64,000 nucleotides of DNA from Tubulanus polymorphus (lineage: Eukaryota; Animalia; Nemertea): NCBI RefSeq assembly GCF_964204645.1, contig NC_134031.1, forward strand, positions 8,556,001-8,620,000, read 5' to 3'. The notes below the pieces were generated by a model, which worked only from the letters and a program-made list of their open reading frames with translations, did not search any database and was not told the origin of the DNA. A program made the translations under genes and the position numbers. Below are positions 24,422 through 62,697 of the stretch, in pieces (the stretch's first letter is position 1; each line of letters starts with the position of its first letter).

Positions 24422-24441
24422 TAATTTTTTTTTCTAAATAA

Positions 24442-24867
24442 ATGGATGATGATATTGATATTATTCCTCATGATATAAATAAAACTAAATTAAAAATATA
24501 TTAAGAAAAACAAATATAAGAATTTGAAAGTGACTTAAAGATAAAAAAGAAAAAATATTTAAAAAGTAAAATTATATATTATTTGATTATAAGTGGTTCG
24601 GTTACAATTAGTTCTGTAATAACATTTCTAGCAATATTCAGTCCATTAACACCTTTAGCTATATCAATTGGCGTATTAGGATTAAGTTCAAGTGTTTTAA
24701 CTGGTATAAGTTCAAAATTAAATATAAAAAGTAATAAAGAAAAAATTAAAACTAATATAAAAGAAATTAATAAATCAAAGAATACACTAGATTATATAAT
24801 AAGTTTAAATGGTCATATAACAGTTGAAGAACAAGATAAATTATTAAAAGAATTAATAAATTATTAA
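24442..24867 (+). pseudogene. Two-TM coiled-coil protein with an internal stop
   Basis: TAAATG start; matches the N-terminal part of 56263-57561. Confidence 0.65.
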
Positions 24868-24883
24868 TTTTTTAATTATATAA

Positions 24884-30574: not shown

Positions 30575-30661
30575 TTTATTTTTAATTACAGTTGTAAGTG
30601 CAATTATTTTTGGGTAAGTAAACATGATAAAAAATAAATAATTAATTTTTTTGTTAAATAA

Positions 30662-31912: not shown

Positions 31913-31944
31913 AATTTTAACTTTAATAAAAATTTATATAATAA

Positions 31945-32763: not shown

Positions 32764-32954
32764 GATATTAATTATATTTAATCAAATAATAATATTGGTT
32801 GAAAATTGTATAAAATAGTAGTTAATAAAAAAGGGCTTTAGGTATTAGGGTATCTAATAGGGTATCTAATACATGGGTAGGTATTAGGGTATATAATAGG
32901 GTATCAGGTATTAGGGTATCTAATAGGGTATCTTATACATAGGTATATAAATAG

Positions 32955-33566
32955 TTATTTTATAAACTTATATTCATATGGAAATTGAAGCCTCAGAAAT
33001 AATTTTGAACCTTTATTATTCTTTAATTTATTCATATATTCATCATGTAATTCAGTAGGTATAATTTGATTTTCTTCCAATGATTGTTGCATAGATTTTC
33101 TATCTTTGTTATAAAATAAAACTAGAAATCTTATATTCTCCCTAAAGTCTTTAACAATTGAATTATATTTTTGATTTAAAACCCATGTTGTTATCCCAAA
33201 ATGTCTCCCAGAAAAAGCTAGATAACATAACTCACTTTCTCTCACTTTTGAATCATGTAAATTAGCGCAATCATCTATAATGAATAATGTATTTGATCCT
33301 TTATAAGTATCAATTGCTATTTTAATACAATTATCTAAATTTTCTTTTACTGTTTTAGGATCTAATATAATAAACTGTTTTATCTTAACTATATCTCTAT
33401 TTTATGTTTTATTCATTTCATAAGTAGGACAAAATAATATTATATTATCAAAATGATTCTTATAAATAGTTTCTAACAAGTCTAATATGAAATGTGTTTT
33501 ACCACAATTTGTTACTTCAGTTATTAACATATCATGCGGTTCAAATATAAATAAATCTTTATTCAT
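32955..33566 (-). pseudogene. A32/FtsK-like genome packaging ATPase
   Basis: Homologous to 59988-60596; Walker A degraded to EVTNCGKT; FIIDD Walker B; internal stop. Confidence 0.85.
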
Positions 33567-34666
33567 TTATTCTTTTAATTTTACTAGATAAAATCCATTC
33601 ATTAAATTTATCATCATATCCTTTATATTTCACCAAAGAATACTTTTTTCCTTTAAGAGTTTTTGTTTTCAATACTTTTTCTATTTTGTATTCTATTTCA
33701 TCTGGATTTGGTACAAGTGATAATTCTTGTTCATAGAAATAACCTAATATTTCTTCGTCTTTTAGATCTTCTAATTTATAAACAAATGGTTTAGTTAATA
33801 TTATCTTTTTAATCTTAAATATTTCTTCCGTAAAATTAGGGGTATAACCTTTTATAAAATGTTTTTCTATATTTAGATATTCTTACGTGTTGTCCAATTT
33901 TAAATTTAGGTTCGCCGAAATCATGTGTAACAAATGCTCCATATAAATTATTCCAAACTATTTCCGAATTATCTTCTTTTCTAGCTTGTATAGGTTTCAT
34001 ATTTATAGAACTATGTTTAGAATTATTATAACCTTTCACTAAATGATCTAACACATCGATATATTTATATGTTTCATTAGCAGTAAAATATTTCCACATT
34101 CTAGTTTTCAATGTTTTATTAAATCTTTCTATAATAGATGCTTTTTTATCTGAATGTGTTGAAAAATAATCTACGTCGTTATCAGATAATAGTTTTTTGA
34201 AATGTTTGTTATAAAATTCCTTACCTTCATCAAATTGTATCTTATCTGGAATAGCTTCTTTAAATATTGATTTAAAAGCATTTGTCACTTCTATACCAGT
34301 TTTATTTTTGATTGCAATTGACCATGCGTATTTACTGAATATGTCTATAACATTCAGTATCCAGAATTATCCTTTGTTGTGTTCTTCTAAGTTCTTCATG
34401 TCAATTAAATCTGCTTGCCATTGTTGATCGATATATGAAACCATAACTTTTCTTGTTGAATAAGTTTTATCCATTTTCTTGTGTATTTGATATGTTGGTT
34501 GATTTTGTAACCATGATTTTAATTCACTATATTTTATATTGCCATTTTCCTTATCAGATTTAATTTTATTTCATAATTCTGAAACGTTAGAATATGATAC
34601 TTCACTTTCTGGGTTATAATATAAATCTCTTAAATATTGTTCTTTTTTCATCTTATTTTAATCCAT
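33567..34666 (-). pseudogene. Retroviral-like (rve) integrase with C-terminal chromodomain
   Basis: WQADLIDM, IDIFSKYAW, IQFDEGKEF, IERFNKTLK; stops and a frameshift. Confidence 0.9.
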
Positions 34667-35018
34667 TAATAATAATTTAGATTTAGTTTCAATGGCTTTA
34701 TGATTTGACTTATTTTCTGGTATGATAGGTTTATCATCATTGGAATCATCTTTATCATCAGATTTGAATTTTGATTTATATATTACACCGGATAATATAA
34801 TAATTGTGATTTACCCAATCGTAATATATAGGTAATTATTTCTTCCACTATTAGAAGAATTAGATGGATTGTTATTTGAATCAATATCAGATAATTTCTG
34901 TGATTCATTTATATCAGTTAATTTCTTTTTCTTAGCTTTTTTTAATTCTTAAGATCTTTTACCTAATTCTCTTGCCCATTTAATTTGTTTCTCGGATCTA
35001 GGCTTTTTCTTGACGCCA

Positions 35019-35621
35019 TCACTCATTTATTTTAGTAAATTTTTGTTCTGATTCATTTTCTGTTTCGCCGTTTGGTTGTAGTACATCTGTTTCGTTCTTA
35101 CCTGATTTATATTCCATAGGTTTGATATTCGAAAATGTTATGACACAAGTAGAAATTAATGTCATAACCGATCCTAATTGGAATGAAGCGTATCCAACCC
35201 ATTTTTGTAATTCAGTCATAACTAAATAGTCATTTTTCAAATCACTATATAATTTATTTTCATCATCAATTGGTATTAACTGGTTACATAACTTAGAATA
35301 ACATTTGACAATACCATCTGAAATAGAATCATTTATTCCGGCTAATCTTGCCTCTTCATAAATCTTAAAATATTTTGTTACTTTATCTGGTTTCATAGCA
35401 TCTAATTCTTGAAAAGTTATTATTTTTCCCAAGAAATCCTTAGATTTCCCTCCAGCAATCAATAGTTCTAGATGACGCTTACAATATAAATAGTATTCAT
35501 AATCTATATTACAATTAACTTGAGCACAATTAGTTACAACTGTATCTTTATTATCACTTATACCCAAATCATCTAATGTTTTTTCAATATTAATATTATT
35601 CTTATTAGATTTCTTTGACAT
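35019..35621 (-). CDS. Polinton hypothetical protein (homolog of 60901-61504)
   Basis: Shared DENKLYSDLKNDYLVMTEL motif; TAAATG start. Confidence 0.7.
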   Translation of the reverse strand: MSKKSNKNNINIEKTLDDLGISDNKDTVVTNCAQVNCNIDYEYYLYCKRHLELLIAGGKSKDFLGKIITFQELDAMKPDKVTKYFKIYEEARLAGINDSISDGIVKCYSKLCNQLIPIDDENKLYSDLKNDYLVMTELQKWVGYASFQLGSVMTLISTCVITFSNIKPMEYKSGKNETDVLQPNGETENESEQKFTKINE

Positions 35622-35826
35622 TTATATTAGAGAAAAAAAAACAAAATAAATATTATAAGTATTCTTCAAATGATACTAGCTAGTTAAAGCTAAAGAATTT
35701 CTATTCGGATCTATTCAAAATATAAAGTATTCTCTTTTTGAAAAGAAAATATTAAAAATATAATAGAATTCACTGGTTAGTTGAAGTTATATAATTGTTA
35801 ATATTTTTTATTTGAGATTTTATTCT

Positions 35827-37064
35827 TCAACCACTTATTAAAGACTCAACGTATTGTTCATTATTCGGATCATTGTTCCATTGATCAATAAATTTCTTTG
35901 CCTTTGTTAACTGTTCTAAATATAACTGTCAATCTAGTTTATTAGATTTGATTTTATTTTCTTTATTTTCAAGAGGTCTTAGATTCTTCCAATTCCAAAT
36001 TAGTTTTTTATTGTATTCATCATTCATGTTAAATTTAGATATTGGTAACGTATGATCTATTTGGAAATAATCTCCATAATTATCATGTTCATTTTATCGT
36101 CGAATTGATATATTATCCATGATTTAAGAAATTCATCTGAACAATCCAATAAATTTGTTAGTGTTTCTGAATGCGTTTCTTTACTGAATAATTTTGATAA
36201 TCTAGATCTTAAACATTGTTAGGGTTTTCTGACTTTCGTCGAAAACCCTCTTGAAATTCTGTTGATTATTATATATTTTCCGCCGATTTCGTCAAATAAA
36301 ATTCATCTTCATTCAGATTCGGCAACTGACAGCTTCGAAACGAAATGTATAAATAGATACTGTAATAACGGTCTCTCTGAACCAACAGATTGTCTGAATG
36401 TACTTTCCATCCTATTTGAAACTTAAAATTACTTATTAGGTTACTGTAAATAAAGAATTGAATTGTTAGACAACAAGCACCGGCGAAATAACAGTTTGTG
36501 ACGTCATTTAGTAAGTAAATAAAGGAGGTCTCCGAGAATTTCCAAATCACGGGGGAGGGACTATACTGGGGTTAGACCATTCAACCAAAAAGAGGATTGC
36601 TCCGATAATATCCAAATCATCTCATTTTATTTTTTCCATCGAATACCCGGTAATTAATTTTTCCTTTCGATCACATGCATCCAGAAAACCCGTTATCGCT
36701 GCTTTGCAGCTATATTTTCATTTTAAAATTTAGATCTATTTGACGCCTTTCTTTTTGATATTTATTTTGATACTCATTATAATGTTCACGATTATCTTTT
36801 TTCCAATCTCTAATATATTCTGGATTATTTTCTCTCCATTTTTTTTTTCTTTTCTTTACATTTTTCTAGATTATTTAGATAATATTGTTTATTATATAGT
36901 TTATTACAAGTTTTACAAATATTTCGTAAACCATCTTTATAAATCTTATGTTTATTAAATTCTGTAAATGGCCCATCTAATTCACATTTAGAACATGTCT
37001 TCTGATAAATATTTATAACACCATTATTGTTTATATTTATAGCTTGTGATTGTTCCGGCTCCAT
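35827..37064 (-). pseudogene. HNH endonuclease of the giant-virus/phage type with N-terminal CxxC..CxxC, split by a HINE
   Basis: Joined translation KTCSKC..CKTC ... RRQIDLNFKMK|QCLRSRL...LLDCSDEFLKSWIIYQFDDKM..DNYGDYFQIDHTLPISKF...NWKNLRPLENKENKIK. Confidence 0.7.
36219..36716 (+). mobile_element. HINE family B short copy
   Basis: 5' TTAGGGTTTTCTGACTTTCGTCGAAAACCCT and 3' AGAAAACCCGTTATCGCTGCTTTGCAGCTATATTT. Confidence 0.75.
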
Positions 37065-38311
37065 TCATAATATAGATTTTTATTAAAAATTGGTTAATAT
37101 TTTAGAATCCTTTTCCAATTCTTCGACCAACGTCATCCTTTTTCATTCCTCGCTGCTTTTGATAAGTCGTTTCGATTCCTTGATATCTAAATCATACCAC
37201 TGGGCAAAAGCGCTCTTATAGGCGCGTTTTTGCTTAATGCGCTTGCGCTAATCTTAATTATATATTCATTCTATAAATTCTGTAAAATAGAAACAACTGA
37301 ACACAAAATTCAAACGCATGCGCACTAGGCAAAAGCGCACATACAGGCGTGCTTTTGCTTAATGCGCATGCGTTAATCATAATTGAAACGACTGAACATA
37401 AAAATTCACCAAACAGATTTACACAATACATATACAAGTATGTTCGGTCGTTTCTTCCAATACCTCATTTGATTTCTATATATAAAATCTATAATTACAA
37501 ACATTTTTTCAATTGCCGGTAAATATTTAACTACATCAACAAATGTTAAACTTAATCATTGGAGTCTTAATGTTTTTGAAATTCTTATATAGTTTCTTCT
37601 TCGATCTTTTGTGATTCTTGTGCTTCTACGTCAATTTCTATTGGTTCGATATCCATTGCTGTTGATTCCTCAGTCAGAAAGAGTATCTTGAGTTTCTCTA
37701 TCGCTTCTTGATGCGTATGACATTTTATTCAACTAAAAGATATCAGCGGTAACTCTAATTATCTAAAAGATACACTAAATACACTTAAATATATCTAAAG
37801 GTTTCATATTTAATGGCCCTAATAACTACAAAAAACAGTACTTACATTTAGATTTAGAATTGTAATCTATAAACTCCTAATTGCGTTTCGAGAGATAAAA
37901 TATCCTAAGCGTTATGTTAAATCATCTATTCAGTTCCGGTGCGATTTCTAGAATGAACACGTCTGCGATTATGACACGTCATCTCTATTCAGAGTTCCGG
38001 TACACCTTCTAGAATGTTCTACGCGTTTGCAGTATTATGACTCATATGTCTCGGCGTCATAGTAACAGCTGTGACAGCTGTGAATTTATAGATTTATTCA
38101 ATAGTTCATTACATGAAATGTATATAGGCTCAAATAGAATCTTGTTCTAGTATAAGCAAATGCTATGTATTATATCATTTATATATATGAATTATTTCAA
38201 TCACACTTTACTAACACTCGTACTCTCGTACTCTGATCTGAAAGCCTACTTTTCTAATTACTTATATATGTTATTCATTTATATTTTATTCATGTATATG
38301 AATATTTTAAG

Positions 38312-47830: not shown

Positions 47831-47896
47831 AATATAGCCTACGTGAGCCTGTGGATTTTAATTCCCAGTGTTAGATTCTGATTTTTAATCGTTCTT

Positions 47897-47960
47897 AAGA
47901 ATTGGAAAAGTAGGCTTTCAGATCAGAGGACGAGACACCACTCGTCACCACAAGTAATTT
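47897..47960 (+). repeat. Left TIR of element 2
   Basis: Reverse complement of 62625-62697, apart from a short duplication on the right and terminal mismatches. Confidence 0.9.
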
Positions 47961-47973
47961 TTTTTCCTAATAA

Positions 47974-50900
47974 ATGGGGGAGAATGAACACCAGCCAGAA
48001 AACAATAATGTTAATAAAAATCAATATTATTGCACATATTGTAAAAAATACGTCGATACATCTAATAAAACACGACATGAAAAAACTGCAAATCATATAA
48101 AAAATGTAATAGATTTTGAAACTCCAGAAAATTCCAATGAAAGAAAAGAAAGATTAGAAAATATGAATGTGGATGAAATAAAATGTGAAGTTTGTAATGA
48201 ATTTATAGTAAAAAGGAATTATAATAGACATCTCGAATCACAAAAACACCATCAAAATTTGAGTAATAATGTTTTAGGAAAAGATTATTTTGATGATAAA
48301 CCTCAAAAAGTAAAAAAAACCAACTTCAAAAACTAAATCCATTTCAAATAAACCTTACATGGAAAATGTTAGAAATTATATTGATTCACTAGAACAAAAG
48401 ATACAATTGAAATTTTAGAAACATTACATAGTAAAATTGGTCCTGCAGCTATTATATTTAGATTTTTTAAAGGTACAACAATAGAAGATTATAGTACATT
48501 TAATGAAATACTAGAAAAAATACTAGATTTGATAACAGATGTTGAATATCCAAAAATTAGTATCTCTGGGAAAGTAAGTTTTATAAAGTCAGAAGAAAAA
48601 GTGAATTATAATATTCAAACACACTCTGAAGAAATAATTTCAAAAACACAAATAAAAGAGAAGTTAGAAAAAATATTTAATGAATTTAAACGTCATATTG
48701 AAGAAAGATATTTTGAGGGTTCTGGCTTAACATTGAATGAAATTATATATTTAGATTTAAATGTTTATAATACAAAAAGAAATAAAACATCAAAAAGTAA
48801 TAAAATGTTTAAAAATGATTCAAACTTTACAACAGAAAAGGATATTAAAGCATCATCTTATGTTAAATTACCATTTACAACAAAAGCAGTAATAAATATT
48901 CAAAATAAAGATAATAAATGTTTTCTATGGTCAATTATTAGTTGCTTACATCCAACACAGGAAAATGTTTGTAGAATAACAAATTACCGGAAATATGAAA
49001 CATTATATAAAATTTATCAATATCCAGTAACTATAAAAATGATTCCTAAAATAGAAAAAGTTGATAATTTAAAAATAAATGTATTTGAATTAATGCAATT
49101 ACCAAAGACAAAAGGTGAAAATATTAAAGATTATACATTGGAAGCTTTATATTTAACAGAATATTATGATGATGAAAATGCTATAGATTTGTTATATTAC
49201 AAAAAAGATGAAAATGAACATTATATGTGGTTAAAACAAATTGATTTATTCTTTAGAACAGAAAGTGATCACCATAATAAAATTTATCTATGTAGAAAAT
49301 GTTTATCTAAATTTATGACTGAGAATACATTATTAAAACATAAAGAATTATGTGATAATATAGATTTTTGTAATGCCAACAGAAAAAGATTATAAATTGA
49401 AATTTACTAATCATAAATTTAAGAATATTGTTCCATTTGTAATTTATGGGGATTTTGAATCGTTGAATAAAGAATTAACTGATCAAGATAGAAAAGAAAT
49501 ATATAACAAAAAGCAATTATTAAAATCAATGGATAAAGGAAATGAATTAAATGAAGACACAATACAAGACCAACCAATTATAAATACAATTAAAAAAGTT
49601 CATCAAAGAGCTGCTGCTTATGGAATTTATATAAAATCAAATTATCCTGAATTATATGAAAGTCAATATATTTCTATTAGAGGTGAAAATGTAGTTAATG
49701 ATTTTTGTGATAAAATGATTGAATTAGAAAGTGATTTTTCAAAATTATTAAACAAAAATAAAAGAATAGTTATGACAAAAGAAGATGAAATTGATTTTAA
49801 TTATGCAACTCATTGTTGTTATTGTGAAAAACGTTTTTATTCATTTGATAAAAAAGTTAGAGATCATGATCATTTAAATTCAAAATATCGTGGAGCTGCT
49901 CTTGAAGATTGTAATTTACAAGCTAAAAAAGTAAATTTCGTTCCAATATTATTTCATAATTTATCAGGCTATGATACCCATCTATTTATAAAACAATTAT
50001 CAAGGAAATTGGGCACAATTAATCAAGAAATAGAAGAATATAATGCTATGAATGGTGTAAATGTAAGAAAATATGATTTTAAACTATTAGCTAAAACATC
50101 TGAAAATTATGTTTCATTTCAATTTGGTTGCATTAGATTTCTAGATTCTTATAGATTTCTAGCAAGTTCATTAGATAATTTATCAAAAAGTTTAGTTGAT
50201 AATGATTTTCTAATAACTCGATATTATTATCCAAATGACCAAGATTTTAAATTATTGAGATATAAAGGTGCAATTCCTTATTCATTTTATAAAACACACA
50301 ATGATTTTAATGTAACAGAATTATTAAAAGATCAATTTTATGATCAATTTAAAGAGGAGTATGTGAAAGACGAAGTGTTTAATAGAACATTAAATGTTTG
50401 GAACCATTTTAAGATGAAAAATCATGGCGAATTAGTTGATTTATATCTAAAATCAGATGTCATGATATTGGCTGACATATTTGAAAAATTTAGAGAAGTT
50501 AATTTGAATCATTTTAATGTTGATCCTTGTTATTGCTACTCTAGTCCTGGTTTAACCTGGCAATGTGGTTTAAAATATACAAATGTAGAATTAGATTTAT
50601 TAAAAGAACCAGATATGGTTTTATTATTTGAAAAATCAATTAGCGGTGGAATTAGTGGTGTTATGGGAGATAGATATTTTAAAGCAAATGATGAATATAA
50701 ATTATTATATATTGACGCCAATAATTTATATGGCTGGGCAATGATGCAACCTCAACCATACAAAAATTTTATATTAACAGAAGTTGAAAATGATGATAAA
50801 ACTGATTGGGAAAGTGCAATTGCGAGTTTAAAAGATGAAGCACCAATTGGTTATTTCTTTGTAGTTGATTTAGAATATCCTGAAAATATAAAGTTTAAAA

Positions 50901-53028
50901 CAAGAAACTTACCTTATTGCCCAGAACATTTAACTGTAGATGATAGTTATTTAAGTGAATACCAGAAGAAAATAAAACCGAAAGATCATGTTTTTACAGA
51001 AAAATTAATACTTACTCAAAATAATAAATACAATTATATTGTTCATTATAGAATGTTAAAATTTTATCTAAAACAAGGAATGAAATTAAAGAAAGTACAT
51101 AGATATATTGAATTTAATCAATCGAAGTGGTTAGAAAAATATATAGATTTCAATACTCAACAGAGAACCATATCAAAAACAGATTTTGAAAAAGATTTCT
51201 TCAAATTAATGAATAATAGTTTTTATGGTAAAACATGCGAAAATATTAGAAATAGAAATGATATTGCATTAGTAAATAATTCTGAAAGATTAAGACATTT
51301 ACAATCAAGTCCTAGACATTTAGGAAATAAAAGATTTGAAGATTATTTTACAGCAGTTAAATTAAAAAGAACGTCAATGAAATTAAATAAACCTATATTT
51401 ATTGGTTCAACTGTTTTAGAAGTATCAAAATTATTAATGTATGATTTTTATTATAATGTTTTACAACCACTTTTTGGGGAAAAGCATATTGAAATATTAT
51501 ATTTTGATTCTGTAACAGCTGACACACCAATATTATTAAAATGTAATGATAAAATATTGATAAGAAGAATTTCAGAAATAATTCCAAAACAAAATGAATG
51601 TTATATTTCATATGGTGAAAAAGAATTAATACAAATAAATGGATTAATGGATGTTTGGACAAGAAATGGATGGAAAAAATTAAAGAATATTATTAGGCAT
51701 AAAACAAATAAGAAAATCTATAGAGTTAGAACTAAATTAGGTTCGTTGATGTTACAGAAGATCATAGTTTAATTAAACGAAATGGCGATGAAATAAAACC
51801 AACTGATATAAAAATTGGAGATGAATTATTACATAAAAGATTTTTCTAAAGAATGAATCATATGTCATTTGATGAAATAATTGATAATATTTATAATACA
51901 GAACCCGAAACATTAGAAGAAAAAGAATATTTTATCAAAGGATTTTTCATGGGTGATGGTTCAGCAGGTGTGTATGATTATGTTAATCGCACTCAATATT
52001 GCTGGTATTTATGCAATCAAGATTTGAAATTATTAGAAAGAATAAAGAAATTCTGTGAAGAAGTTTATTCACATAAAACATTCAAAATCATAGATGTTAT
52101 GAAATCATCGCAATGTTATAGAATACATGTGAATAATCCTAAAGATTTTGCTATAAAATATAATGACGAATTCTATATTCATGCAATAGTGAAAAGTAAT
52201 ACTTCAACTAAAGAAAAGATAATTCCAGATTATGTATTAAATGTAAAAAATAATTTAAGAAAATGGTTCTTCATTGGATTCTACGCAGCAGATGGTACTA
52301 AAAGTTTCAAAAATCGCAAAACAATATCTTTAGCTCAAAAAGGAAAAGTTGCTATATCAGGATTGAATATATTATGCAATTCATCAGGTTTTAATATGAA
52401 TATTGGATTGATTAAATCTAAACCAAATTGCTTTAATTTAAGCCATGTAGAAAATGAGTTAACAGAAGAAGTTAAAGATTTATTTGAAATATATAACCCA
52501 AAAGATTATGTTTATGATTTATCAACTGAAGATCGTACATTTAACTGTGGATTTCCATTAATAGCCAAAAATACTGACGCCTACATACTAAAAATCAAGA
52601 CAAATGACATAACAAAAGACTTAAAAACATTAAAACATCATTTTGATTTTAGCAATTATCCCAAAGATCATGAACTATTTAGCAATGATAATAAAAAGAT
52701 TCCTGGTAAGTTTAAAGATGAATTAGGGGGTGATGAAATGAATGAATTTGTTGGGATAAGAAGTAAAATGTATAGTTACAGAACAAAAGATCATGAAGCT
52801 AAAAAGTTAAAAGGAATAACAAAACATGTGGTTGATAAACATATAGAATTTCAAGATTATATAAAGTGTTTATATAAATCAATTGTAATGAAACATAAAA
52901 TGAATTGTTTAAGATCAGAAGATCACGAGATGTACATTAATGAAGTTGAAAAAACTAGTTTGAATCCATTTGATGATAAAAGGCATATTTTAGATGATGG
53001 TATAAAAACATTACCTTATGGCCATTAA
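47974..53028 (+). pseudogene. Protein-primed family B DNA polymerase (N-terminal zinc fingers, terminal-protein region, EndoVII-like insert, exonuclease, palm) containing an intein; several frameshifts and stops
   Basis: YGDFES, VRDHDHL, FHNLSGYDTHLF, YLKSDV, YIDANNLYGWAM, KLMNNSFYGK and YFD|intein|TD across ORFs 47974, 48529, 49373 and 51853. Confidence 0.92.
51509..52572 (+). mobile_element. Intein with dual LAGLIDADG homing endonuclease in PolB motif C
   Basis: Starts SVTADTPILL; block [10 protein letters not shown]; endonuclease motifs FIKGFFMGDG and FFIGFYAADG; block F YVYDLST; ends LIAKN followed by Thr+1; one frameshift at ~51744 and one stop at 51847. Confidence 0.93.
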
Positions 53029-53810
53029 AACATAAAATCAATATCATCATACTCGAAATCACTATTGGCTTCTTCATTTTCATTTAATTGTTCTTGTATA
53101 ATTTGTTTAGGTTCTTCCATTTCATTTTTCTCATTTAAATATAGTTCTATCTTGCACCACATTTCATCTCGCTCTCTTTGTTTCCTTTTGTTTGTTAATT
53201 CATCAAATGGAATTATAATATCTATGTTTAAATAATTTACAATCTTATTTAAAAGGAATTCATAATTTATTGAATCTGTTATTCTATTTTCCAAATGATA
53301 CATTAATATTTGTTTGAATATTTTTTTTATATTTTCCATATCTTCTTCTGTTAATTTAGGTTTTTCATAATAATCGTTAAATAATGAATATAAATACATT
53401 TTCTTTTGTTTTGTGTTAAATGTTGACGGAATAATTGTTTTTATAATATCTTTTTTAGTTATTTCACCATTTTTATCTTCTATTATTTTCATTTTTTCAA
53501 GCCATTGCTTATATTCTGGTGTATGATCTTCTATAGAAAATATTTTAAAAATTTCATCTAGATAATTTAATTTTGGATCTATGAGAAAATTTCTAGTTTT
53601 TTCTTCACCCCATAAATTCTTTTGCCATCCACATTCATTACAAAATAACACAGTACCTTCTTGTCTTAAGGTCGCATAACTACATTGTGGACATTTTCGT
53701 TTATAATTTATTGGTAATAGATCTTCATTAAGCTCTTGGTATTTTCTTACGTTTTCTTTATGTTTTATTGTTCTATTATGTAGATTTGAATTACTTGTTG
53801 TAATAATCAA
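53025..53810 (-). CDS. VLTF3-like (poxvirus A2L family) late transcription factor homolog
   Basis: Zinc ribbon CPQC..CNECG plus C-terminal IKKIFKQI...SINYEFLLNKIV...RDEMWCKI, resembling VLTF3 family motifs; start codon uncertain. Confidence 0.6.
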   Translation of the reverse strand: MIITTSNSNLHNRTIKHKENVRKYQELNEDLLPINYKRKCPQCSYATLRQEGTVLFCNECGWQKNLWGEEKTRNFLIDPKLNYLDEIFKIFSIEDHTPEYKQWLEKMKIIEDKNGEITKKDIIKTIIPSTFNTKQKKMYLYSLFNDYYEKPKLTEEDMENIKKIFKQILMYHLENRITDSINYEFLLNKIVNYLNIDIIIPFDELTNKRKQRERDEMWCKIELYLNEKNEMEEPKQIIQEQLNENEEANSDFEYDDIDFMF

Positions 53811-53820
53811 TTTACAATAT

Positions 53821-54351
53821 TTACAATAATGTTTTTCTTGTTAATTCATTATATTGTTTTTCTAACTTTTCAACTGTTTCTTTATTATCTGGTAACGTTA
53901 TCTCATATTTTATTTTTTCTAATAAATTATTTTTTCTTTCATTGAATTCAGTTTCAAATTTATTAGAAATTTTATCTATATGTGCTTTACGAAATTGATG
54001 ATTCTCCCAATCTTCTATATTTTCAGGGCTATATTTCATTCGACAAGGCTCACAGAAATGATCTTTTATATTATCCTTATCATAGAGTAAGAAAGGTCTT
54101 TTCCAAATAATTTCAGGTTCAACTTCAACAGAATTACTATTACTTTCATAACTATCAACATTAGCTGTTGCGCCATTAATTTTACACTTCTCTGAATGTT
54201 TTTTAACATAATTTCTTGAGAATAATTTATTACATTTTGGACAGTTTAGTTTAGGGGGTTTATAATTTTCATCATGTTTTTTCATATGTCGAGCCATATT
54301 ACTTTTTCTTAGAAGTTCACCACAAATTTCACATGGTATCTTCTCATCCAT
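53821..54351 (-). CDS. C2H2-type zinc-finger protein
   Basis: CEICGELLRKSNMARHMKKH, CPKC..H...C, CEPC...H.....H. Confidence 0.75.
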   Translation of the reverse strand: MDEKIPCEICGELLRKSNMARHMKKHDENYKPPKLNCPKCNKLFSRNYVKKHSEKCKINGATANVDSYESNSNSVEVEPEIIWKRPFLLYDKDNIKDHFCEPCRMKYSPENIEDWENHQFRKAHIDKISNKFETEFNERKNNLLEKIKYEITLPDNKETVEKLEKQYNELTRKTLL

Positions 54352-54409
54352 TTATTAGGGAAAAAAATTACTTGTGGTGATGAGTGGTAATTTTTTTATG
54401 TTATAAATA

Positions 54410-55197
54410 ATGGTAGAATTAAAAGAATACAGAATATTTGTTGATTCTAGAAGACTTACAAATTATAAATCTCATAATTTATTAATACAATTAGATAGAG
54501 AATTTCAGAATTGTGTAGATTTGAAATTAGTAAATATAAGTTTATGTAACTCTTTTTACAATATATCAGATAAAACTGATGAACATAGAAGCCTTTTTAT
54601 TTTTGATAAACTTAAAAATAAACATTTTCAACTTATGATTACACCAGGATTATATAATTTAGAAACATTAGCGCAGGAAATTAATAGAGAAGCTCGGATT
54701 ATGTTAGGTAGTGATTCTAAATTTAATATTAAATTCATAAAACGTGAGAGCTCTAATAAAATTAAAGTAAAGTTTGATGATGAATATTATAAACCTCATT
54801 TATTTATGATAAGAAGACATGTTTACATGGTAAAAAAATCTTTTGCTAAACTGTTAGGAATTCCTCCAGATAAATTTATTGTTGGAAACATATACGGTAT
54901 ATCAAATTTAATACCTTTTACGCATTTTATATTTATTGCAATTTAATTGATCCTACAAAAACATTTGAAGCAACTAAATATATAACTTGTAATTCTAGTA
55001 TATTAAACATTTTACCATTGAAGAATGTTAAACAATTTGGAACGCAAATAAATTATAATTTAGCTGAATGTGATTTTAAACCTTGTATTTCACATTTCAA
55101 TAATTTTAAATTAGAAATAAGAAATCATAATGGTTATTTAATTGATTTGAATAATTTTCCTGTGATATATGAATTAGTTATAAGACATAGAGAGTAA
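54410..55197 (+). pseudogene. Minor capsid protein (penton), one frameshift near 54930
   Basis: NSFYNIS, ITPGLYNLETLAQEIN, FAKLLG; the next frame gives YCNLIDP...LEIRNHNGYLIDLNNFPVIYEL. Confidence 0.75.
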
Positions 55198-55213
55198 TTT
55201 TTTCATTATATAA

Positions 55214-55570
55214 ATGAATATAACTGTTGGACCGAGTATATGTTTTGGATTTGATTTTAAACGTGAGAAAGAAATGAAATTTAACATTAATGATGTAATT
55301 ACACAAATCAAAAATATTGCATTTTCTAATGAAACAACATTTAAGTATGAAAAAACAATAGATAAAGAAACTTTTAATGTAGAAAAGATTAATAATTTAA
55401 TTAGAGAATCTTTAAGATTTTATGAATTAGATGAAGATTTTATCATCGATGATATTAAAAAAATAATAATTGAAATATATACAAATGAAACTAGTAATGA
55501 AATAAATGTTGAATTAATCATCACTAAGATAACTAAATATTTTGAAGATAGTAATTTTTTTGATAAATAA
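55214..55570 (+). CDS. Polinton hypothetical protein
   Basis: Conserved with element 1; TAAATG start. Confidence 0.7.
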   Translation: MNITVGPSICFGFDFKREKEMKFNINDVITQIKNIAFSNETTFKYEKTIDKETFNVEKINNLIRESLRFYELDEDFIIDDIKKIIIEIYTNETSNEINVELIITKITKYFEDSNFFDK

Positions 55571-55801
55571 ATGAGTGATAATAAGTGGATAATAACTGGA
55601 TTATATAATGGAGCATTACTATCAGTTGGAACTGTTGGTTATTCAATGGTATTAAAAAAAGTATTTAAAATGGGAAGTGTTAATGTTGATAGATTTGATA
55701 TAAATGATATCTTAAAATTAACATTAGCAGTTACTTTATCTAATTTAACTATTGATTATTTAGAAAAACAAAAATATATTCCTCCCATAATAAATGCATA
55801 A
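55571..55801 (+). CDS. Small putative membrane protein
   Basis: Conserved with element 1; hydrophobic. Confidence 0.7.
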   Translation: MSDNKWIITGLYNGALLSVGTVGYSMVLKKVFKMGSVNVDRFDINDILKLTLAVTLSNLTIDYLEKQKYIPPIINA

Positions 55802-55817
55802 TTTTTTTGCTAAATAA

Positions 55818-56243
55818 ATGGCTTCTGCAATTATAACTATTAGAGGATCAGCAATTGTTAACGCTTTAGCATTTACTGGTGGAGGTTATTTATTTAAACA
55901 TATTGATAAAAATGGATCATTAACAGAACAAAAAAAAAAACATAACTTAGCATTAGAAAAATACAATAAAGCTGCAGAAGAATATAGAGAAAAGAGGCAG
56001 AACTATATGGATTACATCAACAAAGAATTATATGATCAGAAGATTTCACATAGAGATTTTCAATTAGTCGATGATGCAATGAGTTTATATAACGCGCTAA
56101 CCAATAAAGAAAAATTACATCTATACAAACCTAAATTATCAGATTATTATACCCCAAGTAAAGAACAACAGAAATATGAAATAATTTGGATTTTAGGTGG
56201 AACAGTTATTGTTATATTTGTAGCATATAAATTTACTAATTAG
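55818..56243 (+). CDS. Putative virion membrane protein
   Basis: Gly/Ala-rich hydrophobic N-terminus (IVNALAFTGGGYLF), helical core and C-terminal TM; conserved with element 1. Confidence 0.7.
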   Translation: MASAIITIRGSAIVNALAFTGGGYLFKHIDKNGSLTEQKKKHNLALEKYNKAAEEYREKRQNYMDYINKELYDQKISHRDFQLVDDAMSLYNALTNKEKLHLYKPKLSDYYTPSKEQQKYEIIWILGGTVIVIFVAYKFTN

Positions 56244-56262
56244 TAATTTTTTTTCTAAATAA

Positions 56263-57561
56263 ATGCAAGATAAAGTTGATAATATTGATATTATTCCTCA
56301 TGATATAAATAAAACTAAATTAAAAATATATTTAGAAAAACAAATATTAGAATTTGAAAGTGACTTAAAGATAAAAAAGAAAAAATATTTAAAAATAAAA
56401 ATTATATATTATCTCATTATTAGTGGTTCGGTTACAATTAGTTCTGTAATAACATTTCTAGCAATATTCAGTCCATTAACACCTTTAGCTATATCAATTG
56501 GTGTATTAGGATTAAGTTCAAGTGTTTTAACTGGTATAAGTTCAAAATTAAATATAAAAAGTAATAAAGAAAAAATTAAAACTAATATAAAAGAAATTAA
56601 TAAATTAAAGAATACACTAGATTATATAATAAGTTTAAAACAAAGAATTAATGAATTATTTGAAATAATCAAAAAGAAATCAGAAACAGAAACAACTTCT
56701 GAACAGAATATAAATTCCAAAACTAGTAAACTTAAATCAAATAAAGTTCCAATTGAAAAACTTTTACCGAATGGATTAATTGATGCAACAGATCAACAAT
56801 TAGAAGATTTAAATAATATATTTTCTGATAAAGCAATTAGAGAAATTATTAGTATAAGGCTTGCATCTGATAAAATTGCGCATGATAAAAGTATAAGAGA
56901 TTTAAAAATTAGAACTTTAGAAAAAGAATTAACTGATAAAAATAAAGAAATAGAACAATTAAAATTAGAAAGAGATATTAAAGTTATTGAAGAAATTGAA
57001 TTTAAAAAAAGAAATACATATTTAGAAAAAGAAATTGATGATTTAGAATATAACATAGAATTACAAAAAGAAGAAATTAAATTATCATTAAAATCATATG
57101 ATTGTAATATTAATAGATTAAAAGTTATTTTTAAAGATTTATTGATAAAACCAAATTCTGAAATATCATTGAAAGATAGAATAAAGTTATTATTTAAATT
57201 AGAAGGAATAACAATTCTTTCAATTCTAACAGCTGTAACTATGTTATTTACAACAATTGGTTTAGCAATATCAAATGCTTTAAAATCTACTCCTACTCCA
57301 AATAAACCAGATAAACCCCCAGGTAATAATTCTATACAAGATAAGGTTAAAGATGGTTTAAAGAAATTAGCAAAATATTTATGGGAACTATCTAAAAAAT
57401 CTGCTGCAGCTTTACCAGGAATTATTGCATCAATTGTTGGTTTTATATTGAAATCTGCTGGGAATATTCTTAACTTTGCTGCTGAACATATTATTTTATT
57501 TTTAATTACAGTTGTAAGTGCTATTATTTTTGGGTTAGTGAATATGATTAGAAATAAATAA
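56263..57561 (+). CDS. Chimeric TM/coiled-coil ORF produced by an internal deletion joining two genes
   Basis: First ~126 aa match element 1 24442-24808; the remainder matches element 1 from ~26745. Confidence 0.7.
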   Translation: MQDKVDNIDIIPHDINKTKLKIYLEKQILEFESDLKIKKKKYLKIKIIYYLIISGSVTISSVITFLAIFSPLTPLAISIGVLGLSSSVLTGISSKLNIKSNKEKIKTNIKEINKLKNTLDYIISLKQRINELFEIIKKKSETETTSEQNINSKTSKLKSNKVPIEKLLPNGLIDATDQQLEDLNNIFSDKAIREIISIRLASDKIAHDKSIRDLKIRTLEKELTDKNKEIEQLKLERDIKVIEEIEFKKRNTYLEKEIDDLEYNIELQKEEIKLSLKSYDCNINRLKVIFKDLLIKPNSEISLKDRIKLLFKLEGITILSILTAVTMLFTTIGLAISNALKSTPTPNKPDKPPGNNSIQDKVKDGLKKLAKYLWELSKKSAAALPGIIASIVGFILKSAGNILNFAAEHIILFLITVVSAIIFGLVNMIRNK

Positions 57562-57581
57562 TTAATTTTTTTGTTAAATAA

Positions 57582-58829
57582 ATGAGTGGGAGTTATATAA
57601 GTCCTTCTAAGATTTCTAGAATATCTAATGCTATTAAAGCAGAAAGATCACATCATATAATTACTCATAATCCTTCAAATATTAATCCTGATGAAACTTT
57701 ATATGTTAGAATTCCTCGATTAACACAAAATACTTTTTATGTTCCAAATAGTAGTTATTTATCAGCTGATATAAAAGTAACTGGTCATGATAATAATTAT
57801 GTTGTTGATAATTTTGGGAGATATTTGATTAAAAAATTTACTATAAAGATTGGACCAGAAACAGTTTTCTCATTAGATGATTATAATTTATTTATGCATT
57901 ATAAAGATTTATGGTTAACTAAAGAAAATAGAAATAATATGATATTTCAGGGTATTCAATCGGAAAACCAAAATAAATTAAGATCAGGAGCTAATGACGC
58001 AATAGTAACTCGTGCCACAGATAATTTGATTAAAAAGATTTATGGAAGCAAATATAAAATTCCATTAGACTTTGAATTGATAAATAATAATGCACCTTTA
58101 TATAAATACGCAATTCAAGAAGATATTATATTTGAGATAACATTTGCTCCTGTAAATGAAATTGTATTATCTAGCGTTGTTAAAGATATGGGTTATAAAT
58201 TATCGAATATATGTTTAGAATATGACACAGTAACTAATGAAAATATTGCTAGCACAATTCAAACTCAATACAATCAAGGATTTTCATTATTATATGATTA
58301 TATTGATAAATTTAAAACTGTAACTATTAATGCAAATGATGAAATAATTAATGAGAATATTTACTTCCCAAGAAGATCTATTAAAGGTATATTAATATTT
58401 TTTACCATTGCAACATATTCTAATGGCGCAATGAAGGTAGATAATTATTATAATCCTGAAATAACAAAAGTAGAAATAACTATCGAAGGAATAGCAAATA
58501 AAATATTTTGTCAAGGAATGAGAATGATAGATCAGTGGCCAGAAATAAGAAAACATTTCATGAATGAAAAAGTAAAATCATTTGAAAATTGTAATATTAA
58601 TCAAATTGATTATTATACCGGCAATAAATATGCATTATGGTTAGATTTTAGAACAACAGAGGATGATTGATTACATGGTTCTGGGAAAAAACTACAGAAC
58701 ACTAAAGATGGAATACAATTATTTATGAAAAAGAAAAAAGGAAGCTTAAATTTTAAAATGCACATTTATATTATATCTGACGCACAATTAAATATTGTAA
58801 ATTCACAATTAGATAGTATTCAATATTAG
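57582..58829 (+). pseudogene. Major capsid protein, single internal TGA at 58668-58670
   Basis: The frame continues after TGA (LHGSGKKLQNTKDGIQL...DAQLNIVNSQLDSIQY), matching element 1. Confidence 0.78.
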
Positions 58830-58859
58830 AAATATAAAGTTAAAATTGAGGATATATAA

Positions 58860-59987
58860 ATGGGTGGTAAAAAAACTCCTAATACTAAAGAACAATATTT
58901 AAGAAATTTATATTACAACCCTGAGAGTTCGGTTGCTTATTCTTCTACTAAAAATATATGGCGTCAAGTAAAACAAGATAAATTAGATAAGATAATCCCA
59001 CAAAATTTAGTTAAATATAAAGATATAAATCAATTTATGTTAGAACAACCAACATATACAACACATAGATAAATTGTTAGAAATTATAAAACTCGTAAAA
59101 CTATGGTAAGTTATGTAGATCAACAGTGGCAAGGAGATTTAATTGATATGAAAAATGTTAAGAAAGATAATAATGATTATTGGTGGTTATTGAATATAAT
59201 TGATATTTTTAGTCGTTATGTATGGAGTTTCCCACTTTATAGAAAAGATGCTGTACAAACATCAAATGTTTTAAGAAAATTTCTTTCGGATGATAAACTA
59301 AAACCAGAAAAAATACAATTTGATGATGGAAAAGAGTTTGATAATTCACTTGTTCATGAACTCTTAGATAATCATAATATTAAATATTTTTCAACAAAAT
59401 CGGATAAAAAAGCAGCAGTTGTTGAACGATTTAATAGAACATTAAGAACAAGAATGTGGAAATATTTTACCGCAAATAATACTTTTAAATGGATTGATGT
59501 TTTACCAAAATTGATAGAAGGATATAATAATTCTTATCATTCTTCTATTGGAATGAAACCTATTGATGCTAGAAAACCTGAAAATGCTGAAATTGTTTGG
59601 AATAATTTATATGGAGCATTTCTTGTAGATGATTTTGGTGAACCTAAATTTAAAGTTGGTCAAAATGTTAGAATTTCTAAGTATAAAAAGATATTTGACA
59701 AGGGATACGATCGAAATTTTACTAGAGAAATATATAAAATAAAAAAGGTAATAACAACAAAACCATATGTCTATAAATTAGAAGATTTAGATGGTGAAGA
59801 AGTTGATGGGTATTTTTATGAAGAAGAATTGAGTTTAACTACTGAAAATCTAGAACAAGAATATAAAATTGAAAAAGAATTAAAAACAAAAACTATTAAA
59901 AGAAAAAAATATTCTTTAGTAAAATGGATTGGATGGCCAGATAAATTCAATGAATGGATATTATCAAGTAAAATTAAAAATATATAA
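58860..59987 (+). pseudogene. rve integrase with chromodomain, single internal stop at 59070-59072
   Basis: WQGDLIDM, IDIFSRYVW, IQFDDGKEF, VERFNRTL (DDE); YKIEK...LVKWIGWPDKFNEWI chromodomain. Confidence 0.92.
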
Positions 59988-60596
59988 ATGAATAAGGAAT
60001 TATTCATATTTGAGCCTCATAATATGTTAATTTCTGGCGTAACAAATTGTGGAAAAACTTATTTTGTATCAAATTTATTAGAAACTGTTTATGAAAACTA
60101 TTTTGATAATATAGTATTATTTTGTCCAACATATGAATTTAATCAAACTTATGATAGAAATATTACTAGAAATAATAAATTTATTATATTAGATCCTAAA
60201 ACAGTAAAAGAAAATTTAGATAATTGTATTAAAATAGCAATAGATATTTATAAAGGATCAAATACATTATTCATTATAGATGATTGTGCAAATTTACATG
60301 ATTCAAAAATTGGAGAGAGTGAGTTATGTTATTTAGCTTTTTCTGGCAGACATTTTGGGATAATAACTTGGGTTTTAAATCAAAAATATAATTCAATTGT
60401 TAAAGACTTTAGAGAAAACATTAGATTTCTAGTTTTATTCTACAATAAAGATAGAAAATCGATGAAAAATGCACTTGAGGAAAATGATATAATTCCACAT
60501 GATTTACATAATGAATATATGGATAAGTTGAAAAATATTAAAAGATCAAAATTACTATTTAGATTACAACACCCATTTAAATATGAATTTATTTAA
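59988..60596 (+). CDS. A32/FtsK-like genome packaging ATPase
   Basis: Walker A GVTNCGKT, Walker B LFIIDD, GRHFGI..W.LNQ motif. Confidence 0.9.
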   Translation: MNKELFIFEPHNMLISGVTNCGKTYFVSNLLETVYENYFDNIVLFCPTYEFNQTYDRNITRNNKFIILDPKTVKENLDNCIKIAIDIYKGSNTLFIIDDCANLHDSKIGESELCYLAFSGRHFGIITWVLNQKYNSIVKDFRENIRFLVLFYNKDRKSMKNALEENDIIPHDLHNEYMDKLKNIKRSKLLFRLQHPFKYEFI

Positions 60597-60599
60597 ATT

Positions 60600-60870
60600 C
60601 AACTAGCTTGTTAATCTAGTTGAATTCTAGTTACATTCTAGTTGAATTCTAGTTATTGGTAGTTGGAACAAAAATCAACTAGATTTAACAATATTTTAAC
60701 TAGCTTGTTAATCTAGTTTAATTTTAGTTACATTCTAGTTGAATTCTAGTTGTTAGTAGTTGGAACAAAAATCAACTAGATTTAACAAGAAATAAACAAA
60801 AACAACAATATTTCAACTAGCTTGTTAATCTAGTTGAATTCTAGTTACATTCTAGTTGAATTCTAGTTAC
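60600..60870. repeat. Intergenic tandem repeat, ~97-bp unit x2.5 built from 11-bp CTAGTT subunits
   Basis: AACTAGCTTGTTAATCTAGTT begins at 60601, 60698 and 60815. Confidence 0.9.
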
Positions 60871-60900
60871 AACATCATAACTAATTTTTTTGTTATATAA

Positions 60901-61504
60901 ATGGTAGGTGAAAAGAAAATAAAATCTAAAAATGGTGATGTTCCAATTGAAAAAACTAGATGATTTAGGAATAACAGAAAACAAATTAATTCCAGATGAT
61001 GGTGTTTTAAATAATGTTTCAACAAATAATAATTATGAATAATATCTTTATTGTAAACATCAATTAGAAATATTAATAGCATCTGGAAAATGTAAAAATT
61101 TTGTCGGTAAAAATTTAACTTATAATGAATTAGATACAATGAAATCAGATGAAATTATTAGATTATTTAAGATTTATGAAACCGCGAGAACAGCTAGAAT
61201 TAATGACGCGATATCAGAAAATGTAGTAAAAGGTTATAGTAAATTATGTAATTATATGCTGCCAATTCAAGATGAAAATAGATTATATGCTGATTTAAAA
61301 AATGATTATTTAGTTATGACCGAATTAAATAAATGGATTGGATATTTATCATTTCAATTAAGTGGATTTATGACATTATTATCTACTGGAGTTATAACAT
61401 TTTCAAATATTGAAAGTAAAAATATTTCTATAATAAATGAGCGAGGTGGAAGAAGTGAAGGAATTAACTGTGAAGAAAAAACCGAGATCACAGAAACAAA
61501 TTGA
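60901..61504 (+). pseudogene. Hypothetical protein homologous to 35019-35621, frameshifted near the 5' end
   Basis: TAAATG at 60901; intact C-terminal 121 aa from 61139. Confidence 0.65.
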
Positions 61505-61805
61505 ATGGTCTCGGCAATTAGGAATTAAATCACAAGAATATAAAAAAGCTGTAAAAGAAAAAATAAGTAATAAAAATGTTAATAAAAATAGTGAAAATAT
61601 TGTTATTTCTACTCCTTCTAATAACAGAATATTTGATAAATGTCTATATTTTACAGTTGGATTTGTAATTGTATTCATTTTGATTGGGTGTAATTGGTAT
61701 AAGAAATCAAATAAAATTCATGATATTAATAATTCTGAAACAACTGCTATCAAAAATGAAAATAATTCTGAAATTCCAAAATTGACAATAAAAAAAATGG
61801 ATTAA
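61437..61805 (+). CDS. Hypothetical basic protein with a TM segment
   Basis: KKPRSQKQIEWSRQLG matches the element 1 remnant near 34950-35015 (KKPRSEKQIKWARELG). Confidence 0.65.
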   Translation: MSEVEEVKELTVKKKPRSQKQIEWSRQLGIKSQEYKKAVKEKISNKNVNKNSENIVISTPSNNRIFDKCLYFTVGFVIVFILIGCNWYKKSNKIHDINNSETTAIKNENNSEIPKLTIKKMD

Positions 61806-61992
61806 TATTTTAGAAAAAAAGCAAAAAAATAATTTTTTTAATTAATTGAATATTAATTGAATATCACCATGTGGGTGCCATACGGCACCATCTCACTTCT
61901 TTTGTCTATCTATGCGGAGCAATTAAATTGTCCAGATAAGTCATTTCGGATTCTAGATATTCATTATTTTTATTAATTTATTTTTTTTAAAT

Positions 61993-62317
61993 TTAATCAA
62001 CAATTTCTAAATCATGATGTCCATCTTCATTTTTTCCATGATAGATTATTTTAAATCCTTCTAAATCTTTTAATTCCTCTGTACTCAATGAAACCCATTT
62101 ATCAGGTAAAAATACTTTAAATTCTCGCGATGTACTAACATTACAGTAACTTAAATTCGCTGATATTTCCTCTATATTTAGTTTTTATCTTTTCTAATTT
62201 CAATATTTTATGTTCATTTTCTTTTGTAACATCAACTAACTTTTTTATTTCAAATTGTTTTTTTGCTGGTTTTATTCTGTTATTTATTGTTGCTAAGAAT
62301 GCTTTTCTATCTCCCAT
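61993..62317 (-). pseudogene. Homolog of 22261-22614, frameshifted
   Basis: Manual translation gives FKVFLPDKWVSLSTEELKDLEGFKIIYHGKNEDGHHDLEIVD. Confidence 0.6.
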
Positions 62318-62624
62318 TTATAAGGAAAACAAATTACTTGTGGTGATGAGTGGGGATTACTTCCCCTGTATATAACAAACACGCTATTAACCGTTCTCAC
62401 CCAAGCCTCACAGCATCTATTTATCTGGGCACAGTTGACACGCAATCACTGAACTACAGTAATAACACACGCGTTAATAACCGTTCTCAGTAGAGACTCA
62501 CTGTATCGATCTATCCGCGCGCAGCTGTTGTTACGCGCACTCACTGTATATGTGTACCACAGAGAGCAATCGTCCGTTCTCACTAGAGCCTAGCTGTGAT
62601 GAGTGGTGTCTCATACTCAATTGA

Positions 62625-62697
62625 ATTATTACTTGTGGTGATGAGTGGTGTCTCGTCCTCTCGTCCTCTGATCTGAAAGCCTACTTTTCCAATTACT
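62625..62697 (-). repeat. Right TIR of element 2
   Basis: Ends ...AAAGCCTACTTTTCCAATTACT (5'-AGT terminus on the minus strand), followed by TSD GTTCTT. Confidence 0.9.

Follow-up and report, generated by a model that had tools for sequence, protein, structure and literature searches.

A two-part gene-start signal resembling the poxvirus late promoter in an integrated animal Polinton

INTRODUCTION

The matching of promoters between an integrated element and its helper virus is established for mavirus and the EMALEs, different types of which carry the promoters of different helpers in the account given in PMC10945749, and it is also mentioned for Sputnik-like virophages in the source passages drawn on here. 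In this work, we describe what may be a comparable situation in an animal. A stretch of 64,000 nucleotides from the nemertean Tubulanus polymorphus (assembly GCF_964204645.1, contig NC_134031.1, positions 8,556,001 to 8,620,000, in its full length referred to below as the window) contains two copies of a Polinton/Maverick, elements 1 and 2, most genes of which start at the hexamer TAAATG with a T at a fixed distance upstream. We consider it moderately probable that this two-part signal is a late promoter of the poxvirus type, and that its reader is an RNA polymerase supplied by a large, pox-like DNA virus infecting the same cell.

Several described systems resemble element 2 in part. Like mavirus and the type-4 EMALEs of Cafeteria burkhardae, as presented in PMC10945749, it is an integrating, capsid-encoding element with a polymerase and an rve integrase, whose promoters appear to match the late promoter of a large virus; as among the EMALEs, related types bear different promoter motifs. 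The same account gives mavirus and the EMALEs a protist host, CroV as the experimentally established helper, and a TCTA-type motif, whereas here the host is an animal, the capsid is of the Polinton type, the motif is of the pox type, and the helper is a predicted one. Barth et al. (2024, PMC11296320) described Polinton-like viruses from the occlusion bodies of entomopoxviruses. These viruses, AHEV_PLV1/2 and CBEV_PLV1, are likewise animal elements tied to a poxvirus, with mosaic replication modules near their ends; unlike element 2, they are described in the relevant parts of that paper as ~12 kb long, without an rve integrase, and from insect hosts. Its main text has zero occurrences of promoter, motif, TAAAT, or transcription. 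The adintoviruses, which are animal Polintons/Mavericks, share the gene set and the ends with element 2 in the portions of PMC8502044 consulted, and that paper contains no promoter analysis (0 occurrences). The yeast linear elements pGKL1 and pGKL2 are similar in their protein-primed linear DNA, TAAAN initiator, and slippage leaders, and differ from element 2 in having their own RNA polymerase, an upstream ATNTGA element, and neither capsid nor integrase (per the pertinent sections of PMC6211774). Among the papers listed by full-text searches, which do not cover subscription journals, none links TAAATG to animal Polintons in its title or at the start of its abstract, and the motif is not described in Polintons in the available parts of PMC4542343, PMC11071308, and PMC6401483, or of the preprints 10.1101/2024.03.23.586382, 10.1101/2025.10.09.676808, and 10.64898/2026.07.28.741278.

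RESULTS

TAAATG at the gene starts of both elements

TAAATG is found at 12 of the 13 definable gene starts of element 2, the exception being the minor capsid gene at 54410, whose orthologue in element 1 (22632) has it. In element 1, it is found at 13 of 15 starts, the integrase start at 34651(-) and the start at 37064(-) being without. An earlier sequence-only reading of the window had listed 24 such starts; all of these are correct, with TAA immediately 5' of the ATG at 24/24 coordinates, but a further TAAATG start of element 1, at 35026(-), had been missed. The hexamer is not enriched across the window as a whole (115 observed versus 107.7 expected). TAA precedes only 5.3% of the remaining ATGs of the two elements (n = 1153), which gives a binomial p of 6e-15 for 12 of 13, and shuffling of each 30-base upstream stretch yields the motif at 1.0 of 13 starts. 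The comparison with other ATGs and with shuffles that had been proposed along with the list thus comes out in its favor: the excess is positional, at gene starts. In-frame internal ATGs are unusable as a control, since a TAA before them is a stop.

Two further statements of that reading hold. Most starts are not stop-start couplings, these being confined to two of the 12 in element 2 (55571 and 59988) and one of 45 in intact relatives, and the spacers are short, with a median of 17.5 bases over eight tandem pairs. The motif is likewise found at the outermost gene of each end, next to the terminal repeat and with no gene upstream. The one host gene start examined is without it. Splice acceptors were ruled out as a source of the pattern, there being no AG before these ATGs. 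A single subterminal block, present in copies, accounts for three of the predicted promoters of element 2, and the two elements are related to each other and not independent; the weight of the argument therefore rests on metagenomic relatives.

A fixed upstream T

Alignment of the starts brings out a T-run with its maximum at -12, together with an A at -18 and another at -4, ahead of TAAATG, position -5 being free. The T at -12 is present at 22 of 24 window starts and at 23 of 61 other TAAATG hexamers (p = 6e-6), a comparison that counts the true start at 35026 among the 61 and so works against the result. In 11 of the metagenomic relatives described below, it is present at 35 of 36 starts versus 25 of 73 other TAAATG (p = 3e-11), the A at -18 is present at 28/36 versus 17/73, and the neighboring position -11 shows no excess (16/36 versus 27/73). 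Counted from the initiator, the peak T is the 9th base before TAAAT, that is, -10 from the first A; the 10th base is a T at 18 of 24 window starts and 28 of 36 starts of the relatives.

The sequence-only reading had noticed T-runs before many genes and likened them to the TTTTTNT early terminator of poxviruses. The runs exist, but TTTTTNT itself precedes only 6 of the 12 TAAATG starts of element 2, and the terminator interpretation is not supported: in the relatives, TTTTTNT is found after 1/10 ends of convergent genes and after 7/32 ends of genes in tandem, and the runs keep a fixed distance from the next start even without an upstream gene. Such terminators were therefore rejected. TTTTTNT is scarce in the coding strands (11 seen versus 30 expected, ratio 0.36), to a degree similar to that in a group without TAAATG (4 versus 10, ratio 0.41). 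Judged from their spacing, the T-runs are parts of the predicted promoter and not early terminators.

Start signals among metagenomic relatives

The major capsid protein has 409 relatives, among them a named one, a protein from a clam (39% identity). The query was aligned with 47 sequences drawn from its best 53 matches, and this 48-row alignment led to 72 metagenomic loci, in which a gene start was accepted if its N-terminus matched an orthologue in another locus and capsid fragments of <300 residues were dropped. Group tallies rest on 45 of the 72 loci; the other 27 are near-duplicates, hold broken capsid pieces only, or were left unassigned, and the unassigned loci have almost no TAAATG. 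Among close relatives (capsid identity of at least 50%, G+C content of 20-44%), TAAATG is present at 39 of 45 starts. In three other groups (26-60% G+C), the counts are 0/28, 0/28, and 0/34, with a purine at -3 in 78 of these 90 starts; unlike element 2, the branch with the clam capsid relative has Kozak-type starts and no TAAATG. The motif recurs in three distant sets on capsid branches at 32-34% identity, at 10/10, 3/4, and 5/5 starts, the first of these counts being partly circular, as four of the seven loci of that set were placed by motif and not by tree.

Base composition does not account for this distribution. The AT-rich relatives L016, L022, L025, and L030 (26-30% G+C) are without TAAATG, while L006, L007, and L044 (39-44% G+C) have it. 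On a capsid tree of 30 loci with a full capsid and at least two starts, which has several long branches and an unknown root, 16 loci are of the TAAATG type, implying at least three state changes, with no link to G+C content in four independent pairs, too few for a test. A split with 100/100 support separates 20 rows with either TAAATG or the TATA signal described next from 10 rows with Kozak-type starts. All this marks TAAATG, as far as these sequences reveal, as a lineage trait and not an AT bias. In the close relatives, the start context is unusual as well, position +4 being a purine at 44/45 starts and position -3 a pyrimidine at 40/45, and TAAATG stands at 8 of 10 divergent starts.

A sister group without TAAATG (L016, L017, L018, L030, and L053; G+C up to 49%) has TATA within 22 bases of the ATG at 24 of 28 starts, against a null with a mean of 7.2 and a maximum of 15 of 500. 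At 5-20 bases before the ATG, it is too near the start for a TATA box. A TTT is found 9-16 bases upstream in 15/24 versus 52/268. In the Kozak-type groups, TATA is weakly or not enriched (17/28 versus 12.2 and 8/34 versus 4.7). The asfarvirus late promoter is summarized in the relevant passages of PMC5294985 as TATTT at -15 to -11 and TATATA at -1 to +5, and its initiator in those of PMC7163114 as TATA; the sister-group TATA with its upstream T-run appears to resemble this arrangement, with an offset that differs by ~2 bases and a looser T-run.

Two individual relatives deserve mention. A distant one (L068, 691-4512, minus strand) has an intact polymerase gene with a promoter and first residues near-identical to those of element 2. 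In a close one (L004, 10340-10981, minus strand), a deoxynucleoside kinase gene (PF01712, E = 2e-31), of a kind typical of large DNA viruses, is found behind a TAAATG promoter.

Structure and history of the elements

The window has two AT-rich islands of 22-26% G+C in surroundings of 34-43%; the coordinates of both elements and of the features of element 2 are collected in Table 1. Element 2 is an integrated Polinton, as seen from its terminal repeats, target duplication, polymerase, integrase, ATPase, capsid, and penton. Its terminal inverted repeats measure ~60-70 bases and, with the short target duplication, correspond to Polinton/Maverick ends. The target duplication of Polintons is typically 6 bp. 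Several of its genes are broken, and a sequencing run guessed to be RNA has next to no coverage of the element. In a second sample under the same species label, a single-copy flank contig ends 30 bases inside the left terminal inverted repeat, and reads over 47.7-56.3 kb are 11-108x deeper than that flank (median ~34); the family therefore has tens of copies.

Element 1 has lost its left end within the polymerase, has a repeat array inserted at ~27.6-30.5 kb (the part at 28626-30260 being an array of ~31-base tandem repeats), and retains its right terminal repeat. It is 89-92% identical to element 2 over the structural genes and 71-77% over the polymerase, penton, integrase, and ATPase, the segments compared being 20.7-22.2 and 32.9-35.6 kb of element 1 and 50.5-52.8 and 58.9-61.4 kb of element 2, and the integrase-ATPase block is inverted. 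The identity pattern together with this inversion reads as module exchange between lineages. The subterminal block of element 2 occurs in four places (47938, 54368, 62334, and 62629), and the inner copy at 54368 bounds the segment of the polymerase and the VLTF3-like gene in a cassette-like manner. Between the ATPase and the next gene (60598-60880), a repeat unit of 97 bases that contains palindromes is present three times.

Outside the elements, a host NKRF-like frame (10682-12541, with XTBD, G-patch, and R3H domains) is preceded by a splice-acceptor-like stretch, the contig of origin measuring 21.6 Mb. A protease frame of the retroviral type is located at 41651-43318, and the remains of a DDE_1 transposase at 47248-47601, just before element 2.

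Table 1. Coordinates of the two elements and of the ends, genes, and gene-start signals of element 2 in the window
Feature	Coordinates	Strand	Remarks
Element 2	47898..62697		Full-length decayed Polinton/Maverick, 14.8 kb, ~23% G+C; host flanks 35-42% G+C
Element 1	20650..38262		Second, more decayed copy
Target-site duplication GTTCTTA	47891..47897 (left), 62698-62704 (right)	+	7-base direct repeat
Left terminal inverted repeat	47898..47957	+	Inner block leads directly into polymerase promoter
Right terminal inverted repeat	62629..62697	-
Protein-primed family B polymerase	47974..53028	+	PF03175, E = 1e-19; gene broken in this copy
Intein with LAGLIDADG domain	51509..52572	+	Inside polymerase, itself broken; TIGR01445 above cut-off; none in element 1
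Zinc-finger gene with VLTF3-like C-terminal part	53025..54351	-	Broken near 53.82 kb; marginal match
Minor capsid (penton) gene	54410..55198	+	Broken; fold taken from intact relative, 36% identical
Double jelly-roll major capsid protein	57582..58829	+	Broken near 58.67 kb
rve integrase	58860..59987	+	PF00665; interrupted by stop near 59.07 kb
A32-type packaging ATPase	59988..60596	+	PF04665, E = 4e-11
Predicted two-part promoter, polymerase gene	47956..47976	+	A at -18, T at -12, TAAATG; no gene upstream
Predicted two-part promoter, zinc-finger/VLTF3-like gene	54349..54369	-	Subterminal block copy; divergent from 54410
Predicted two-part promoter, gene 55214	55196..55216	+
Predicted two-part promoter, gene 55571	55553..55573	+	Also stop-start coupling
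Predicted two-part promoter, gene 55818	55800..55820	+
Predicted two-part promoter, gene 56263	56245..56265	+
Predicted two-part promoter, major capsid gene	57564..57584	+
Integrase gene start	58842..58862	+	TAAATG, A at -18, no T at -12
ATPase gene start	59970..59990	+	TAAATG, A at -18, no T at -12; also stop-start coupling
Predicted two-part promoter, gene 60901	60883..60903	+	304 bases from upstream stop
Predicted two-part promoter, gene 61437	61419..61439	+	Lies within upstream coding sequence
Predicted two-part promoter, gene 62317	62315..62335	-	Subterminal block copy; no gene upstream

Gene content and the polymerase intein

The predicted structure of the major capsid protein (predicted local distance difference test score, 81.6) matches D13, PBCV-1, and other large-virus capsids in Foldseek with E values down to 2e-10. 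A penton model from the relative L004 matches a PBCV-1 chain with a Z score of 14.5 (root mean square deviation of 3.0 over 140 aligned residues) and the mavirus penton with a Z score of 11.8 (9.6 over 238). An intact relative of the integrase has a chromodomain-like tail. No Pfam match to a Ulp1-type cysteine protease was found in the 21 and 24 frames scanned, several conserved genes being without an assignment, and for an RNA polymerase there was neither a Pfam match in the frames scanned nor a catalytic motif in the six frames of element 2; as in the virophage lifestyle, no RNA polymerase of its own was detected. The VLTF3-like part scores 24.8 bits against PF04947, just below the cut-off of 25 (E = 2e-5). 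The 72 relative loci, all of them incomplete, yielded no such gene, and a protein search with the VLTF3-like frame returned nothing within 144-461 residues, the range to which it was confined, longer or fused forms lying outside it. As the capsid trees contained no reference virophage capsids, membership in the Lavidaviridae or Maveriviricetes is not claimed.

The intein is inserted at the YFD|TD motif of the Polinton polymerase. Of the 150 matches among its kin, 107 are located at YGD|TDS, in RNA-primed polymerases resembling DNA polymerase delta (Pol-delta), and 21 of 23 carriers scanned are of the PF00136 family; no pox or asfarvirus polymerase appeared among PDB matches at 1e-20 for two intein-bearing polymerases queried. 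The intein was accordingly dropped as a poxvirus link, its kin sitting in Pol-delta-like polymerases. Its kinship points to a homing event that linked a Polinton with a large DNA virus, and a passage of PMC11071308 notes that homing endonucleases occur as insertions in the polymerases of Polintons. Read depth over the intein is about half that of the adjacent polymerase, and many copies therefore likely have no intein or a different one.

DISCUSSION

The closest match to the two-part signal is the vaccinia late promoter, in which, in the wording of a review from which we take the spacing, TAAAT(G) lies over the start codon and the 10th base upstream is a conserved T among other T's (PMC11980589). 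According to the relevant passage of PMC12917281, poxvirus late transcription begins at the first A of TAAAT. It is established that the poxvirus polymerase starts in the AAA and slips, generating a 5' poly(A) leader. Both features recur here, namely a TAAAT(G) overlapping the start codon and a T ~10 bases upstream in a T-run (compare the promoter descriptions in PMC11980589, PMC5294985, and PMC12917281). The suggestion of a pox late promoter made in the sequence-only reading therefore agrees with vaccinia to within one base, although its early-terminator component is unsupported. Set against the vaccinia signal as described in these sources, the peak T is the 9th and not the 10th base, there are additional conserved A's at -18 and -4, and the signal serves even the DNA polymerase gene. 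What is new would be a promoter match of the virophage type, of pox motif, in an animal Polinton; helper dependence is likely.

If the signal is a pox-type late promoter, the integrated element would be inactive in cells that have not been infected by a helper. On infection, the pox-like virus would supply late transcription, and all genes of the element, the polymerase included, would fire late, as in mavirus. Slippage would produce an A leader in which both the in-frame stop and the unfavorable T at -3 give way to A's, and such a leader would explain why a purine at +4 accompanies a pyrimidine at -3 in the close relatives. The element would go on to copy its DNA through protein priming, package it in a capsid of its own making, and insert itself again into the genome, and its VLTF3-like protein might conceivably tune the late machinery of the helper.

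A number of observations weigh against this interpretation. The excess of T at -12 does not reach significance in the distant sets that have TAAATG (10/17 versus 11/33, p = 0.13); two element-2 starts, those of the integrase (58860) and the ATPase (59988), are without it; and integrase starts often have no TAAATG at all. The VLTF3-like match was not recovered with a longer frame. Scans of viral contigs identified no helper virus and no relative of the capsid, of the VLTF3-like frame, or of one intein-bearing polymerase, two other such scans giving only the distant, uninformative loci L073 (25%) and L074 (37%). Transcription by a helper is a prediction from the promoters themselves. Nor does the motif single out poxviruses: the RNA polymerase encoded by the linear elements of yeast works with initiators of the TAAA type as well in the account of PMC6211774, and the promoters of many large-virus groups are undescribed. 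The intein links the element to non-pox, Pol-delta-like polymerases, among which viral and cellular carriers are not distinguishable. Tens of nuclear copies could also arise by transposition without a helper. We know of no poxvirus from this host group.

Among the alternatives, it is unlikely that host RNA polymerase II, possibly aided by the zinc-finger/VLTF3-like protein of the element itself, reads the signal as a compact promoter in the nucleus, its pox likeness being a matter of inheritance or convergence and a helper being unneeded. The many nuclear copies, the candidate transcription factor encoded by the element, and a report of TATA-binding protein at vaccinia late promoters in the material consulted would suit such a promoter; yet TATAAA, where present, overlaps the ATG, whereas a TATA box is located 25-30 bases before the start (in the relevant part of PMC5294985), and position -5 is free, with A in 14 of 24 starts. 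Transcripts from further upstream would moreover have a U at -3, where other branches favor a purine, and no VLTF3-like gene was found in the partial relative loci.

We regard as similarly improbable a large-virus-type promoter with a reader other than a poxvirus, be it a large DNA virus of a different group, whose late promoter is undescribed, or a linear element that, like pGKL2, encodes an RNA polymerase. The TAAAN initiator and slippage of pGKL promoters (described in parts of PMC6211774), the contact with Pol-delta-like polymerases to which the intein points, and the mimivirus late motif, with a T element ~11 bases before TA[TG]A (as given in PMC6510173), all lend this some substance. Against them stand the occurrence of W4-N-TGA-W3 within 80 bases at only 2 of 13 starts, with no upstream ATNTGA-like or early motif; the attribution of TAAAT(G), among the families covered in the review passages, to poxviruses only; and the presence of TAAATG at 3 of 25 starts in the one giant-virus contig checked.

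There is little chance that the signal belongs to translation or 3'-end formation, as stop-start reinitiation, an insulating in-frame stop, or an AATAAA poly(A) signal overlapping the next start. TAA is indeed an in-frame stop before every such ATG, and AATAAA overlaps the start in 20 of 45 starts of the relatives and 7 of 12 in element 2, but real coupling occurs in only 1 of 45, 25 of 45 have no AATAAA, TAG and TGA do not substitute for TAA, and the motif also stands at divergent starts and behind the terminal repeats; both stop-start coupling and poly(A)-signal overlap were rejected on these counts, and a fixed T one helical turn upstream fits recognition on DNA. AT-richness or a host Kozak bias, which the low G+C content of the elements and the want of enrichment across the window might have suggested, is scarcely credible, being ruled out by the shuffles, by the split of 39/45 versus 0/90 among starts of the relatives at odds with their G+C content, and by a T at -3 that is the reverse of Kozak bias.

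No start signal for animal Polintons turned up in the literature searched. A fixed two-part signal of the pox type makes it testable how these elements are transcribed, and with that, whether they live as viruses in their own right, as transposons, or at the expense of a larger virus. The pox-type reading predicts a hitherto undescribed pox-like virus of marine invertebrates and supplies the motif with which to find such a virus. More tentatively, and on balance doubtfully, a whole branch of animal Polintons may be virophages whose helpers are pox-like and asfar-like viruses still to be discovered in marine invertebrates. Sister lineages would then have changed between a late promoter of the poxvirus type (T-run and TAAATG) and one of the asfarvirus type (T-run and TATA) along with the helper, so that the promoter names it, and the integrated copies may act as an inducible antiviral defense. 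If this is true, the virophage defense described in protists would extend to animal genomes.

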